Origin: Alphaproteobacteria bacterium
Lineage (GTDB): Bacteria; Pseudomonadota; Alphaproteobacteria; Rs-D84
Direction of reading: 5' to 3'
Assembly: GCA_017403085.1 (NCBI GenBank)
Contig: JAFQOQ010000006.1
Location: 832 to 64,831 of the forward strand
Length of the DNA: 64,000 nucleotides
Shown here: positions 872-27,720 of the stretch, in pieces
How positions within the stretch are numbered: position 1 is the first letter of the stretch
How the letters are laid out: each line of letters starts with the position of its first letter
Translations under genes and position numbers: made by a program
Notes under the pieces: generated by a model
The model's input: the letters and a program-made list of their open reading frames with translations, nothing else
What the model was told of the DNA's origin: nothing
Database searches by the model: none

Positions 872-2839
872 TTATTCTTCACATCTGCATTCGCCATCTT
901 CGCCGCCCACCCATTTGCATTTGGCGTCTTTGCGGTTGTCGCATGCTTCTGCGTTTTGGGCCCACGTGCCTTCGCATTTTCCTTTATACCAATATCCTCC
1001 TTTCAGGCGCGAACATGTTTGTATGTCTTTTGCGTCTTTTTTATCTGTTATACAGTTGCCATTAACATATGCGCCACCGGCATTTTCGCATGCAATGGTT
1101 TTGTCCATTTCATCATCGGTTGGGCGCCCCCCCTCCGATTTTCTAGTTTCTGCAATCTGAGCGTTGAGCGTCTCGTTTTGTTTTTCGCGGTCTTTTGCCA
1201 TGAATTCAGCGGCTGCATTATCCATGTTTTCCTTTCTGCGGGCCTCTACATTTTCAGGTTTGTTGGCTTCTTCGCGGGCTTCTTTTATGTCGCGCTTGCT
1301 GATATCAGCTTCGCAGATGCCGTCTTTTACCTTGTATCCTGGTTTGCACTTGGTGGCGACGCATACGCCGTTTTTCTTTTTACCGTCGGTTGCGTTTTCT
1401 GGCAATTCGCCGTCCGCACATTGCTTGTCAGCCTTTTCTTGGGCTTTTTCTTTGGCCTTTGCGTCCTTCTTGGCTTGGCGTTCTTCTTTCTTGGCTGCCT
1501 TTTCTTCAGCCTTGGCTTCTTTCTTGGCTGCCTTTTCTTCGGCCTTGGCTTCTTTCTTGGCCGCTTTTTCTTCGGCCTTGGCGGCTTTTTCAGCCTTTTG
1601 ACGGTCCAACGAACGGTTAATCGCACCGGATGTCACCGCGCCAACCGCCATACCAACACCAGATCCCAACATCGCAGATGACGCCGCCGTCTGAGAACGG
1701 GTTAAACGATATGCGTTTTCTTTGAATGTCGTTATGTCAATGCCAAACCAATTCTGGTCACAGTCAAATACAGAACCGGCATAGGCCTTTTTAGATGCAT
1801 AGGCGGTGTTGTCTTCGCCCGCAAAGAAATTAACCGTAAATACGCAATCCATACTGCGTTCGTCCAGCATCGCCCCCAGGCGCTGGCATGTGGATGCCAT
1901 TGCGTCACGCATTTTGTATAATTTTTCTTCGTCGCGTTGTACCGATTTTTCGGCGTCTTGACGTACCGCACCAAATGCCGACATCATGCGCGATGCCAGG
2001 CCGTTGTCTTGCTGGGTACAATTTTTGGCGATTTTTTCACATGCGGCAATCGCCTGGTCCCCGCCGGATTTGCCCAGACATTTGGCAAATGTGGTGCCGC
2101 ATTCGGTGAATATGCAATCGTTATACTGGTTCCCGCAATCGATAATCGCGTTATAGTTTGACATCTTGGCATTCATGTCGCGGTCGGCCTTAATCTCGGC
2201 AGAAAATAGGTTGTATTCTTCGCCTGTGCATTCCGCATTGCGACGGCATGAATCCATCTTGTCGCCCCAGATTGTGTCGCCGTCACCCTTGCACTTGGAA
2301 TAATCGTTGCCACATTTTTCCTTCATACATGCGCGCAGGGCCTGGTCACAGGCGTTTTGGCCACTGGATAATGCAGATTGGGATTTGGCCGCCGCCGTGG
2401 TTGCCGCGTCTTGGGCGTCCAAGGCTGCACGCTGGGCACGGATTTTTGCCGCCAAGTCGTTTGCCGCCGCGTCACCGCCAGATGCGTTTGTTTCGTCCAA
2501 TACATCGTCAAACAGGGATGACTTGTTTTCGATAATTGTGTCAGGATCAAATGCGGGTTCTTCGTCCGACACCGGGGCAGGGGCCGGTTTCGTTTCGGTG
2601 ACCGTTACGGATTCTGGTTCTGATTTAGATGCCGTGTTCGCAGTTTCTTGGGCCACGGGCGCGGATTTCGCCACGGGCGCACGACCGCCCGCAGACGCGC
2701 CACCACGGGATACAGATGCGCGCGCACGTGCCGCCGCATCCGCAGATGTTGCAAAACCAATGCAGATTATAGAGCATAACGCACACTGCATAATTATATG
2801 CAGAATATTGCGATGAAGATTTTTTCTGTTTATGCCCAT
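872..2839 (-). CDS. large secreted Cys-rich protein (family member E)
   Basis: 655-aa ORF with a hydrophobic N-terminus (..CSIICIGFATSADA) and an A/R/S-rich leader. Cys blocks CDQALRACMKEKC and DCGNQYNDCIFTECGTTFAKCLG match the paralogs. It also has a Gly-zipper (MLGSGVGMAVGAVTSGA), K/A/E repeats, and C-terminal modules such as VCVATKCKPGYKVKDGICEAD. The true start may be an internal Met. Confidence 0.85.
   Translation of the reverse strand: MGINRKNLHRNILHIIMQCALCSIICIGFATSADAAARARASVSRGGASAGGRAPVAKSAPVAQETANTASKSEPESVTVTETKPAPAPVSDEEPAFDPDTIIENKSSLFDDVLDETNASGGDAAANDLAAKIRAQRAALDAQDAATTAAAKSQSALSSGQNACDQALRACMKEKCGNDYSKCKGDGDTIWGDKMDSCRRNAECTGEEYNLFSAEIKADRDMNAKMSNYNAIIDCGNQYNDCIFTECGTTFAKCLGKSGGDQAIAACEKIAKNCTQQDNGLASRMMSAFGAVRQDAEKSVQRDEEKLYKMRDAMASTCQRLGAMLDERSMDCVFTVNFFAGEDNTAYASKKAYAGSVFDCDQNWFGIDITTFKENAYRLTRSQTAASSAMLGSGVGMAVGAVTSGAINRSLDRQKAEKAAKAEEKAAKKEAKAEEKAAKKEAKAEEKAAKKEERQAKKDAKAKEKAQEKADKQCADGELPENATDGKKKNGVCVATKCKPGYKVKDGICEADISKRDIKEAREEANKPENVEARRKENMDNAAAEFMAKDREKQNETLNAQIAETRKSEGGRPTDDEMDKTIACENAGGAYVNGNCITDKKDAKDIQTCSRLKGGYWYKGKCEGTWAQNAEACDNRKDAKCKWVGGEDGECRCEE
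1490..1588 (-). repeat. in-frame 33-nt tandem repeat, 3 copies, encoding K/A/E-rich 11-aa units
   Basis: The + strand text cttggctgccttttcttc[a/g]gccttggcttcttt occurs at 1490-1522 and 1523-1555, with a diverged third copy at 1556-1588. The protein reads EEKAAKKEAKAEEKAAKKEAKAEEKAAKKE. Confidence 0.8.
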
Positions 2840-2858
2840 GTTTTAATCCATTAACCCT

Positions 2859-25392: not shown

Positions 25393-27720
25393 TTAAGGGG
25401 TTTGCGTACCTTCTTCAGCTTCTTCGTATTCTTGTTCGCTGCTTTGCAAATCTTCGTTACCTGTATCTGGTTTGCATGATGTGCCGTCTTCGGATGTTTT
25501 ATAACCTGTGTTGCATACGCATTCAGATGTGTCGCCGGCAGATACAGGACTGGCGTTTGCGGCGCATGTGCATTGGCCATATTGGTTGAATTTGGATAGT
25601 GTTCCACATTTAGAATAGCATGAAGAACCCCATGCTGCATATCCGTCATTGCAACGACATAAATTGTTTAACCATTGTTTGCCATTACCGATTTCTTCGG
25701 CATTATATGATGGGTTATTGGATTTTGATTTTCCGCCTGCGATATAGCTGGAATTGTCAGGACATAGCAGTGACTGATAGAACATTTCAGATATCTTGTC
25801 TATGCATGTGTCTTGGTCGGTGATGTTGGTGGCGTCGGGGGGACAGCTTTTCTCGTCGGATTCAAATACTGCAAATGCACAGGTCAGGGCAACGTTGCGA
25901 CATGCACCGCGCATTACGTTATATATGCTGGTGACGCTGGCACTGGATGACCATGCATTAACCTGGGATACCTGTTGGTTATAGCAGGCGGCGATATCGG
26001 TCATGCATGTAGATGCATAATCAGATATTATTTGATGTTGTGCGGCCTTGATATTAACCATGGCGCGTTGGATATAATTTACAATTACATCATTCCATGG
26101 GTTGTATTTATCGTTGTTGTATGTGTATTGCTGGCATTTATCCAGAACTGGACGACACAATCCTTCGTCGGTCACTTTTTGTCTGGTGCCAATTTTTGTC
26201 AGCAGGTATTTTACATTACATGCCCCATCTTTGGTACATGTGTCTGGTGTAATTTGTGTGTTATAGTATTCTGAAAGGTTTGAACTAATTATATCGGCGT
26301 TATTGTATTCTGCCATAAAGTCTTTGATTTTCGTGATGTCTTGGCCCAGTACAACTTCGCCATTTTCGTCGATGTATCGTTTGGTTGGGTCCAGGCATTT
26401 TGAATAGTCTGCACCACATACCATGTCGTCGGTCATGCATGTGTTAAGGGCGGCGATACAGCCTTTGGCATCATATTGGTTTTTGTTTTGCAATACCGCC
26501 AGGCGTGCTTTCTGCAACATCAGGTTTGCGCTGCGCACATTTGATGTCAGGGTTTCGTTCATTTTCTTTAGCCCTTGTTCGTATGCGACACAGTCTTTGT
26601 CAATTGCCAAATCGTAATTGCCAGTGATTTGTTGTGTTGTTGCGCCAGCGTTTTTGCATTGGGTTAAAACACTGTTGCAACGTTTTTTGGCGGCATTATA
26701 AAGTTCGGTCCCGCGCAGGTTGGAAAAGCTGCTGCTGGATGTATTGTTTAGAAAATCAAGGCTGAATATATCAGATGAATCAGATGAAAAATCTAGATCC
26801 ATATCAAGACCGGTATATGTGTCTGATACGTATGAAGAAGATGAAGTTGGATCGCGAATTAAATCCTCGATTTCTTCTAGCATGTTGCGCGTTTCAGATG
26901 TGTCAGCCGTTTTGTTTAACGCTTCTTCTGCCTCTGTCTCGGTCATGATGGCGCGAATTTCATCAGCAGATAATCCGACATATCGTATGCGCTGGGCAAC
27001 ATCGTTTAACTGTGTGTTGGCGTTTTTGACCGCTTCTTCAACCTTGGTATATCGGGTCAAATTTGCGGAACAAGAGCAACGTTTTTGATTTGAATCAATT
27101 ACTGCGCAGAACTGGTCCATGCATTCGTTATATTGTTCTTGGCACGATTTATTTAATTCGGCGGTTTGTTCAAGACGCTCTTTGGCCTCGGCAATTGTTT
27201 CTTTGGTTGCGGTTGCGCGCGATTGCACGTTGCGAACCAATTCATCAATATTAGATCCGGTTTGGGTGCCAGATGCGTCAATTATTGCACGACCGCCAAC
27301 CTCTGCCGTGCTGGGGCGTACGGTAATGCCTGCACGTCGCAGGACGGGGCTGCTATTAAAACTGGCCGACGAGACACGAGTGTTACGTCCGACGGTATTG
27401 ACCGCCGCGTCCAGGTTGCTGCGCGCGGATGTATCTGTTTTGTTGTTGGCCGCCGCCGTTGCGCGTGTAATTGCACTGGTGCTGCGTGTTGTGGTTGCGG
27501 GCGCGTCCTTGGTCGTTGGGATGATGTTGCGTGATACAGTTGTGCGAGATGTTGTTGTGCGACCGTTTGATGTTGCGCGTCCGCGTGATGAAGACTGTGC
27601 GGATGAAGTTTGTTTAGTGTCAGAATCACTGGGGATTGCACGCGAAATCGCCCCAAATGCGGTGTCGCATACGGGGGCAATCATTGCAATTGCAAAAAAA
27701 CACGTTAAAAATTTCTTCAT
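25393..27720 (-). CDS. large secreted Cys-rich protein (family member D)
   Basis: 775 aa with the signal MKKFLTCFFAIAMIAPVCDTAFG and an R/S/T-rich leader (SSRGRATSNGRTTTSRTTVSRN...). It carries CQEQYNECMDQFCAVIDSNQKRCSC and GCIAALNTCMTDDMVCGADYSKCLD, and C-terminal modules CRCNDGYAAWGSSCYSKC...CVCNTGYKTSEDGTSC. Confidence 0.85.
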   Translation of the reverse strand: MKKFLTCFFAIAMIAPVCDTAFGAISRAIPSDSDTKQTSSAQSSSRGRATSNGRTTTSRTTVSRNIIPTTKDAPATTTRSTSAITRATAAANNKTDTSARSNLDAAVNTVGRNTRVSSASFNSSPVLRRAGITVRPSTAEVGGRAIIDASGTQTGSNIDELVRNVQSRATATKETIAEAKERLEQTAELNKSCQEQYNECMDQFCAVIDSNQKRCSCSANLTRYTKVEEAVKNANTQLNDVAQRIRYVGLSADEIRAIMTETEAEEALNKTADTSETRNMLEEIEDLIRDPTSSSSYVSDTYTGLDMDLDFSSDSSDIFSLDFLNNTSSSSFSNLRGTELYNAAKKRCNSVLTQCKNAGATTQQITGNYDLAIDKDCVAYEQGLKKMNETLTSNVRSANLMLQKARLAVLQNKNQYDAKGCIAALNTCMTDDMVCGADYSKCLDPTKRYIDENGEVVLGQDITKIKDFMAEYNNADIISSNLSEYYNTQITPDTCTKDGACNVKYLLTKIGTRQKVTDEGLCRPVLDKCQQYTYNNDKYNPWNDVIVNYIQRAMVNIKAAQHQIISDYASTCMTDIAACYNQQVSQVNAWSSSASVTSIYNVMRGACRNVALTCAFAVFESDEKSCPPDATNITDQDTCIDKISEMFYQSLLCPDNSSYIAGGKSKSNNPSYNAEEIGNGKQWLNNLCRCNDGYAAWGSSCYSKCGTLSKFNQYGQCTCAANASPVSAGDTSECVCNTGYKTSEDGTSCKPDTGNEDLQSSEQEYEEAEEGTQTP

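Follow-up and report, generated by a model that had tools for sequence, protein, structure and literature searches.

What are six large cysteine-rich proteins, each with an N-terminus resembling a signal peptide, doing among the core genes of an uncultured gut bacterium, and do they form one family? The question is raised by a 64,000-nucleotide stretch of contig JAFQOQ010000006.1 (assembly GCA_017403085.1), referred to below as the window, from a member of Rs-D84 (Candidatus Enterousia), an order of uncultured bacteria found widely in the guts of humans and livestock. Rs-D84 genomes are smaller than 1 Mb and fermentative, without respiratory chains and with most biosynthesis absent; a symbiotic or parasitic lifestyle with dependence on a partner has been proposed, and the possible mediators of partner contact in the published genome analysis are 'hypothetical membrane-bound proteins' (PMC12306168). 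The six genes, here designated A to F, are best explained, at a probability of about one half, as encoding Sec-exported helical subunits of the envelope or cell surface that would be stapled by disulfides and whose variable, outward-facing modules would contact the partner or host.

Four paralogs and two remote relatives

The six open reading frames (ORFs), with a summed length of 12,267 bp, are as follows.

872-2839, minus strand: E, 655 amino acids, a remote relative of A-D
2859-3725, minus strand: F, 288 amino acids, the smallest remote relative, with 20 Cys
9228-11651, minus strand: A, 807 amino acids, a BLASTP paralog with 29 mature Cys
12137-14320, plus strand: B, 727 amino acids from a GTG start (longer in-frame alternatives at 12059 and 12044), a BLASTP paralog with 36 Cys
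14355-16850, plus strand: C, 831 amino acids, a BLASTP paralog with 36 mature Cys
25393-27720, minus strand: D, 775 amino acids, a BLASTP paralog with 32 mature Cys

All six are present with the ends and strands given in a preliminary description of this DNA, and each block string quoted there occurs verbatim in the protein named. Cysteine makes up 187 of the 4109 residues of A-F (4.55%), against 1.15% in the other 44 proteins of the window, and its spacing is as unusual as its abundance: gaps of exactly six residues account for 41 of the 181 intervals between consecutive Cys in A-F, as opposed to 3 of 142 in the other window proteins, making C-x6-C the dominant spacing.

By sequence comparison A, B, C and D are clear paralogs, aligning pairwise in BLASTP with E-values from 1e-8 to 5e-54 at 22-28% identity across 250-490 residues, and B is the most conserved of them (median ortholog identity 68.5%). 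Some 20 invariant Cys columns are common to the four, in a core of about 470 residues. Each carries a Block 1 motif, C-x6-C-M-D-x-F-C-x9-C-x-C, followed by 16 Cys columns that are universal among 138 diverse homologs. The preliminary description had proposed a paralogous family of six united by a C-x6-7-C-[ML]-D-x-F-C signature; the signature, in the form C-x6-C-M-D-x-F-C, and the plain paralogy both hold for A-D only, and E and F lack a Block 1 of that form and are remote relatives.

Neither E nor F was detected by BLASTP, by a four-sequence A-D hidden Markov model (HMM) or by a 154-sequence one. Profile-sequence searches between E or F and A-D gave whole-protein E-values of 0.1-3, with a best single-domain independent E-value of 9.4e-4 (the E profile on C), and A-D, E and F HMMs run against all window proteins returned no significant whole-protein link of E or F to A-D. 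The link emerges from profile-profile alignment with hhalign, in which the E family matches the A-D family with 89% probability (E-value 2.3e-6, 122 columns, E 162-296 on B 311-447) and the F family does so with 93% probability (E-value 3.9e-7, 135 columns, F 95-243 on B 236-391), B positions being those of a 753-amino-acid numbering of B. Reversed-profile controls, which preserve the Cys-rich composition, scored 22 for E and 23 for F, with probabilities of at most 1.2%. E and F thus appear to be related to A-D remotely, at the level of a domain.

That domain is a six-Cys module, C-x6-C-x4-6-C-x6-C-x12-C-x6-C, the unit common to the A-D family, E and F. It lies at residues 151-192 of F, occurs twice in E, and is represented in B by the following segment.

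12995-13120, plus strand: six-Cys module of B, C-x6-C-x6-C-x6-C-x12-C-x6-C (CLLAYRSCIADKGGCGSNFENCLDADLLGRRANACENVLDQC), delimited from the translation, gap patterns and hhalign

In the profile-profile alignment of E to A-D, the stretch of E that had been taken for Block 1 (CDQALRACMKEKC) aligns to Block 3 instead. B and C appear to contain three tandem six-Cys modules each. Aligned with itself, the A-D profile yields in-register module alignments at 8% probability, with a score of 36 as compared to 29 for the reversed control, a weak signal that is suggestive of a tandem-module origin.

Distribution, synteny and a seventh gene

The family extends well beyond the window. Against 1.84 billion representative proteins the core profile matches 931 clusters (50% identity), with 539 of the matches falling below 1e-30, and a YxxCMD[QE]FC pattern gave at least 600 matches when run on one genome per GTDB species, 581 of 600 being confirmed relatives. 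Locus comparisons reported here use the best 80 of these 581. They are labelled as Candidatus Enterousia or as metagenome-assembled genomes (MAGs) of uncultured Alphaproteobacteria, proteobacterium or 'Rickettsiales', the exceptions being three 'bacterium' and one Muribaculaceae, the last probably a binning label. The MAGs derive from the guts of humans, ruminants, horses, chickens and other hosts, and one of them is a circular genome of 958,618 bp. A cluster look-up of divergent homologs yielded a single taxonomic name, that of a 'Rickettsiales bacterium' MAG; an identical C protein is present on gut-metagenome contigs. Named source annotations of the homologs all read 'hypothetical protein'.

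The gene order C-B-infA-A recurs in about 65 of the 80 species-level loci, with each paralog in single copy, and F-E lies 5-9 kb from A wherever the locus extends that far. The neighbouring core genes infA, nrdG/nrdD and recO were confirmed, and an old, lineage-defining expansion, as originally proposed, accords with the retention of this order across Ca. Enterousia and its relatives. F lies 19 nucleotides upstream of E on the same strand, B and C are separated by 35 nucleotides and probably form one operon, and terminator-like hairpins bound three operons, F-E, B-C and A-G. The third of these ends in a gene that the preliminary description had overlooked.

8468-9166, minus strand: G, 232 amino acids, Cys-rich, with a signal-peptide-like N-terminus, 61 nucleotides downstream of A
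8443-8469: bidirectional terminator-like hairpin at the shared end of the A-G operon and a convergent 1233-amino-acid gene
16849-16880: terminator-like hairpin after C

Greedy calling of the longest ORF hides G behind a longer, spurious frame (8468-9409) that overlaps A. The protein has nine invariant mature Cys and starts with C-x6-C-x18-C-x6-C, and its gene immediately follows A in 64 loci as well as in a divergent locus (L083) with a different genomic context. Membership of G in the A-F family was ruled out: its alignment to the A-F profiles covers the signal peptides only, with no detectable homology.

Across Ca. Enterousia and its relatives each of A-F has persisted as a separate orthologous line, and A, B, C and F are typically present once per locus at a fixed position. 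Median ortholog identity to the window proteins is 54% for A, 68.5% for B, 60% for C and 60% for F, which resembles that of an ordinary neighbour (61% for a BOF protein) and is far above that of an autotransporter similar to the chlamydial PMP proteins (38%). By this measure they are core, slowly diverging genes and not a variable repertoire. Separate orthologous lines at fixed positions suggest that each protein is a different subunit of a single conserved extracytoplasmic structure, in the envelope or on the surface. An origin from a mobile island was rejected, because the guanine-cytosine (GC) content of the genes is like that of the rest of the window and their position is fixed across species.

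Evidence for the proposed disulfide-stapled helices

The preliminary description suggested that Cys pairs in helix-like sequence form disulfide-stapled helical hairpins. AlphaFold2 models of the A core and C-terminus (from a 46-sequence alignment) and of F (50 sequences) are almost wholly helical, with helices of 30-55 residues, bearing out the first half of this idea; the A model also has a small beta-containing, Cys-rich C-terminal part. The A model has a mean predicted local distance difference test (pLDDT) of 70 and a predicted template modelling score (pTM) of 0.41; for F the values are 76 and 0.35, with residues 150-288 near a pLDDT of 90. C-x6-C pairs lie inside single predicted helices, as with C13/C20, C349/C356 and C387/C394 of the A model, and this places both Cys on the same side, as a staple to a neighbouring helix requires.

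A second line of evidence is the parity of Cys counts among orthologs.

B orthologs: 36 mature Cys in 61 of 69; even in 66 of 69
C orthologs: 36 mature Cys in 74 of 95; even in 91 of 95
D-type homologs: 20-95 mature Cys; even in 24 of 26
F orthologs: 20 Cys in 115 of 116; even
A orthologs: 29, 31, 33 or 35 mature Cys; odd in 103 of 113
E orthologs: 15, 17, 19 or 21 mature Cys, 15 of them invariant; odd in 103 of 115
G orthologs: nine mature Cys in 60 of 60; odd

Cys residues are thus gained and lost in twos, as disulfide pairs predict, and the changes by two seen again and again within D, A and E are separate events. The odd conserved counts in A, in its operon partner G and in E suggest intermolecular disulfides or functional free thiols. 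A particular pair of columns behaves in the same way: among 138 sequences, the second and fifth Cys of the six-Cys module are both present in 59 and both absent in 79, and are never split. The co-lost columns are the second Cys of Block 3 and the first Cys of the next C-x6-C, and their paired loss fits an antiparallel hairpin that would join the first to the third helix of the module by two staples. The conserved parity and the one co-lost pair of columns lend the proposed disulfides indirect support.

Taken as a mechanism, A-F would be exported by the Sec route as elongated alpha-helical proteins whose helices are stapled together by many intramolecular disulfides. The stapling unit would be a module that spans about 45-75 residues and contains six Cys arranged as C-x6-C / C-x6-C / C-x6-C, in which Cys i and i+7 on one helix face would bond a neighbouring helix. 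In the 753-amino-acid numbering of B, the predicted pairs are C320-C347 and C313-C354, with C327-C334 as a local loop. The lone unpaired Cys conserved in each of A, E and G would cross-link one molecule to another; in E it would be one of C318, C332 and C360.

Conserved cores and variable termini

Around these cores the proteins differ considerably in layout. In most members the signal peptide is followed by a disordered stretch of 50-200 residues, rich in Arg, Ser, Thr and Ala, and the C-terminal parts differ in length and content among species. In A the signal peptide is followed by an R/S/T/A-rich disordered region (about residues 21-130), the Cys-rich helical core (137 to about 590), an extra seven-Cys module (591-683), to which its odd Cys was mapped, and a C-terminal tail; 120 orthologs of A, at 52-98% identity, are among the matches listed. 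D has a long disordered N-terminus and Cys-rich C-terminal modules that may be EGF-like. In E a signal peptide and disordered region precede a conserved core at about residues 100-415, which comprises two tandem six-Cys modules and the 15 invariant Cys, and the core is followed by a Gly-zipper-like segment and a variable tail that is K/E-rich and Cys-rich. Cys in this tail, beyond the Gly-rich segment, also occur in pairs, which argues against a cytoplasmic location of the tail. B ends with RNCHVC, a Gly-zipper-like hydrophobic segment and a final CEDVNM, and C ends with CEDIQM.

14171-14260, plus strand: Gly-zipper-like hydrophobic segment close to the B C-terminus, from a hydrophobicity scan and the sequence
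1619-1690, minus strand: Gly-zipper-like hydrophobic segment of E (TAASSAMLGSGVGMAVGAVTSGAI), near-invariant among orthologs

The only Pfam signal for these segments is a single sub-threshold match of B to Bacteriocin_IIc (E-value 0.012). B and C orthologs share a C-terminal module that reads RNCH[VF]C, a Gly-rich hydrophobic segment and then C-x5-9-CED[IV]xM at the carboxyl end (window positions 14171-14320 and 16700-16850; loci L003-L082). A terminal CED[IV]xM was found in 122 of 2480 locus ORFs, namely 62 B and 60 C orthologs, where it is almost invariant, and none outside B and C; it is a possible signal for sorting or anchoring, of no known type. The low-complexity regions of A (11262-11591), D, B and E vary in length and contain motifs such as SRAA, ARSAT and TARTA. 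A short conserved motif precedes the Cys core, ARMPT[MIV] in E orthologs (P0123-P0239) and RAGI(I/T)xPT in A and D, and ARMPTM is also found in an unrelated 684-amino-acid Cys-rich protein (L083, 14047-16101).

In some homologs the variable parts include recognizable domains. PF09479, the Listeria-Bacteroides repeat, scores 31-139 bits (cut-off 27 bits) in five of six very long D-type homologs, and CarboxypepD_reg domains are present in two E orthologs (P0133 and P0139); both domains are typical of cell-surface proteins. The PF09479-bearing homologs (P0257, P0272, P0276, P0277 and P0278) are 1500-1850 amino acids long, with up to five repeats. A Pfam scan of the window's own six proteins did not find PF09479; D matches cEGF with an E-value of 0.022 and 15 bits, under the cut-off of 26.6, and the C-terminus of the A model has a weak Foldseek match to the TNFR Cys-rich domain of OX40R (E-value 1.7, probability 0.57, 62 columns).

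Predicted export and a candidate disulfide oxidase

An approximate, heuristic scan for hydrophobicity and motifs found signal-peptide-like N-termini in A-F and G, each combining a basic n-region with a hydrophobic h-region and a small-x-small cleavage site, in line with the claim of signal peptides on all six; the same scan found no lipobox in A-F or G. The envelope into which they would be exported is that of a diderm, since the window encodes LpxI, LptC, an outer-membrane protein barrel, an autotransporter, OmpA and PpiD. Between recO and D lies a gene for a thiol-disulfide oxidoreductase.

23172-23996, plus strand: membrane-anchored DsbA-like thiol-disulfide oxidoreductase with a CPYC motif (Pfam DSBA 7e-20, Thioredoxin_4 4e-19)

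By its proximity, this protein is a candidate oxidase of A-F. The extracytoplasmic or host-interaction role proposed at the outset is thus consistent with the signal-peptide-like N-termini, the nearby CPYC gene and the surface-domain fusions of homologs.

Relation to known systems

Scans of A-F and G with Pfam and NCBIfam gave sub-threshold noise only, with nothing at curated cut-offs; PDB sequence searches with three family profiles found no meaningful relative, and Foldseek returned nothing at an E-value of 0.001 or below (A-core model against PDB; F model against PDB and BFVD), the best-ranked matches being generic long-helix proteins. Literature searches on Rs-D84 and cysteine-rich proteins, and on CX6C motifs, found nothing relevant. 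The initial failure to place the signature in a named family has thus been sustained; the family and its six-Cys module are undescribed, and the fold of the family probably is too. The kind has precedents nonetheless, both in Cys-rich exported envelope or surface proteins of reduced-genome symbionts and in helical hairpins stapled by paired CXnC motifs.

The same inferred building principle is seen in the CHCH proteins of the mitochondrial intermembrane space (twin CX9C, and twin CX3C in the small Tims), a compartment that corresponds to the periplasm; there, two CXnC motifs on antiparallel helices are joined by two parallel disulfide staples. Joint loss of the second and fifth Cys would fit this geometry of an inner and an outer pair. 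A-F have no Pfam match to CHCH at an E-value of 1 or below, however, and the likeness is by analogy only; the spacing here is six, not nine or three, and the modules stand in tandem in exported bacterial proteins of 290-830 amino acids, as compared to single domains of 60-100 amino acids. The Hcp proteins of Helicobacter, built of Sel1-like repeats, are exported all-helical repeat proteins in which paired Cys are spaced by about seven residues, and a part in host interaction has been proposed for them. A-F are likewise predicted to be exported and helical, belong to a gut-associated bacterium, have Cys pairs at a similar regular spacing and may have a comparable role. Sel1-like repeats gave no Pfam match at an E-value of 1 or below and no Foldseek PDB match at 0.001 or below, and the predicted use of the Cys differs, because the Hcp pair bonds to itself across the turn between helices A and B, whereas the pair here lies within one predicted helix.

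A different kind of likeness is offered by OmcA and OmcB of Chlamydia, which are Cys-rich envelope proteins of a reduced-genome, partner-dependent diderm with PMP-type autotransporters. Intermolecular cross-linking as in OmcA and OmcB is plausible in view of the odd Cys counts. No Pfam or NCBIfam match to either was found among A-F, and OmcB is beta-rich, unlike A-F, which are predicted to be helical. The presence of peptidoglycan shape genes is a further difference, RodA, MreB and MrdA being reported for Rs-D84 (PMC12306168). Likeness to PF09479 surface proteins and to EGF or TNFR modules is confined to accessory C-terminal modules and does not extend to the conserved core, and the window proteins fall under every cut-off.

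Envelope, surface or something else

If A-F are surface subunits, as we favour, their role is probably attachment: the conserved helical cores would form stalks that resist proteases and bile, and the variable C-terminal modules, perhaps EGF/TNFR-like here and carrying Listeria-Bacteroides repeats or CarboxypepD_reg in homologs, would touch the partner cell or host surface. A genome below 1 Mb, sparse biosynthesis and the proposed dependence on a partner are in line with such a role. Several points weigh against this explanation. No outer-membrane route is evident in A-F, in which no beta-barrel, lipobox or recognizable secretion signal was seen, so that the proteins may remain periplasmic, and the surface-domain fusions belong to homologs and not to the window's own proteins. 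The models are of moderate confidence (pLDDT 70 and 76, pTM 0.41 and 0.35), the parity counts cover related sequences, such that binomial p-values overstate their independence, and the paired loss of Cys columns is essentially a single event within the A clade. The window contains neither a DsbB nor a VKOR gene, and the route of DsbA re-oxidation is puzzling because the lineage is reported to be without respiratory chains.

The main rival, a possibility to be taken seriously but the less probable of the two, is an internal lattice, periplasmic or on the inner face of the outer membrane, that would be cross-linked by disulfides and stiffen the reduced-genome cell with no part in adhesion, in principle like the chlamydial Cys-rich complex. 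Only a Sec signal, and none for outer-membrane translocation, is visible; the odd Cys counts conserved in A, E and G would suit intermolecular cross-links; and the Gly-zipper-like segments of B and E, of a membrane-active type, the core-gene-like synteny and moderate conservation, and the presence of a Chlamydia-PMP-type autotransporter in the same window all point in this direction. Peptidoglycan is probably present, however, given the RodA, MreB and MrdA reported for the lineage (PMC12306168), and the species-to-species variation of the C-terminal regions is more typical of outward-facing parts, as are the cell-surface-type domains of homologs; Pfam shows no homology to OmcA or OmcB. A bolder extension of the surface-subunit reading, rather doubtful as it stands, would have A-G together form a covalently cross-linked extracellular stalk, coat or attachment organelle, of a kind not seen before, that docks onto the partner cell. 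Its subunits would share a new helical fold of the 'twin C-x6-C' type and be linked by the lone unpaired Cys of A, E and G, for example in an A-G heterodimer whose two parts come from one operon.

Other explanations of dense, regular Cys fare worse. Metal binding, by which the Cys clusters would be Zn or Fe-S type sites of exported storage or redox proteins, is unlikely: even counts are also compatible with four-Cys sites, but the counts step by two and not by four (29/31/33/35 in A, 15/17/19/21 in E), C-x2-C gaps are rare (5 of 181), His is not a partner residue in the conserved motif consensuses, and a Sec-type N-terminus implies export in an unfolded state. In the models, moreover, Cys i and i+7 on one helix have the geometry of a staple and not of a chelating site, and no metal-binding family was matched in Pfam or NCBIfam. 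Least credible are two readings that draw on the host-associated setting. An immune-evasion coat subject to antigenic variation, like the VSG, VSP or PfEMP1 families of parasites, would account for Cys-rich, helical, exported proteins with variable C-termini in a host-associated organism, yet there are just four to six copies, each fixed in position with its own orthologous line across dozens of species, ortholog identity (54-69%) is not below that of ordinary neighbours, no silent cassettes or repeats were seen, and the absence of Foldseek PDB matches at 0.001 or below extends to VSG and DBL folds if the library holds them; this reading was rejected on synteny and single-copy orthology at fixed positions. 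Release as toxins or effectors against competing microbes or host cells is equally improbable, for all that the proteins are exported and of unknown function in a dependent organism and that B has its weak glycine-zipper, Bacteriocin_IIc-like match (E-value 0.012), since Pfam and NCBIfam revealed no catalytic or toxin domain, the pattern of an immunity gene is absent, the proteins are very large and in conserved synteny with housekeeping genes, and a set of six or seven different, conserved paralogs is easier to reconcile with a structure.

A-F and G occupy about 13 kb of a genome of about 0.9 Mb, are conserved across the recovered species-level loci and match neither a named family nor a solved structure. 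This makes them prime candidates for the machinery by which Rs-D84 builds its envelope or attaches, and they offer concrete targets for structure determination, metaproteomics, antibodies and imaging guided by fluorescence in situ hybridization. The twin C-x6-C module could be a new fold of helices stapled by disulfides, and the parity pattern predicts which subunits would be covalently linked. How an anaerobe reported to be without respiratory chains would oxidize some 100 disulfides per protein set is a puzzle in its own right.

Neighbouring genes

Several other genes of the window encode exported or unusual proteins.

3872-4621, plus strand: exported hypothetical protein of 249 amino acids, between F-E and A-G
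4741-8442, plus strand: exported hypothetical protein of 1233 amino acids, also between F-E and A-G, with poly-Gly tracts and a sub-threshold ankyrin match; orthologs in 14 fetched loci, median identity 48%
27814-28893, minus strand: choloylglycine (bile-salt) hydrolase family gene with a signal-peptide-like N-terminus, directly adjoining D
29911-32988, minus strand: large exported Cys-rich protein of 1025 amino acids, with 27 Cys and few C-x6-C gaps
32967-33899, minus strand: exported protein of 310 amino acids, adjoining the preceding one
34014-34087: tRNA-Gln
40393-43683, plus strand: autotransporter of 1096 amino acids, with a PF02415 Chlamydia PMP repeat and a C-terminal autotransporter barrel, fast-diverging (median identity 38% among loci)

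The adjoining 1025- and 310-amino-acid proteins are unrelated to the A-F profiles and have no Pfam match. Within 34014-35928 the tRNA-Gln gene is followed by the lowest GC content of the window (32.7% at 34001-36000), in a stretch that encodes a 115-amino-acid ORF and an HNH endonuclease-domain protein of 404 amino acids. This stretch probably represents a small integrated island or a defence island. The bile-salt hydrolase family gene beside D is, from its family assignment, consistent with a gut habitat.

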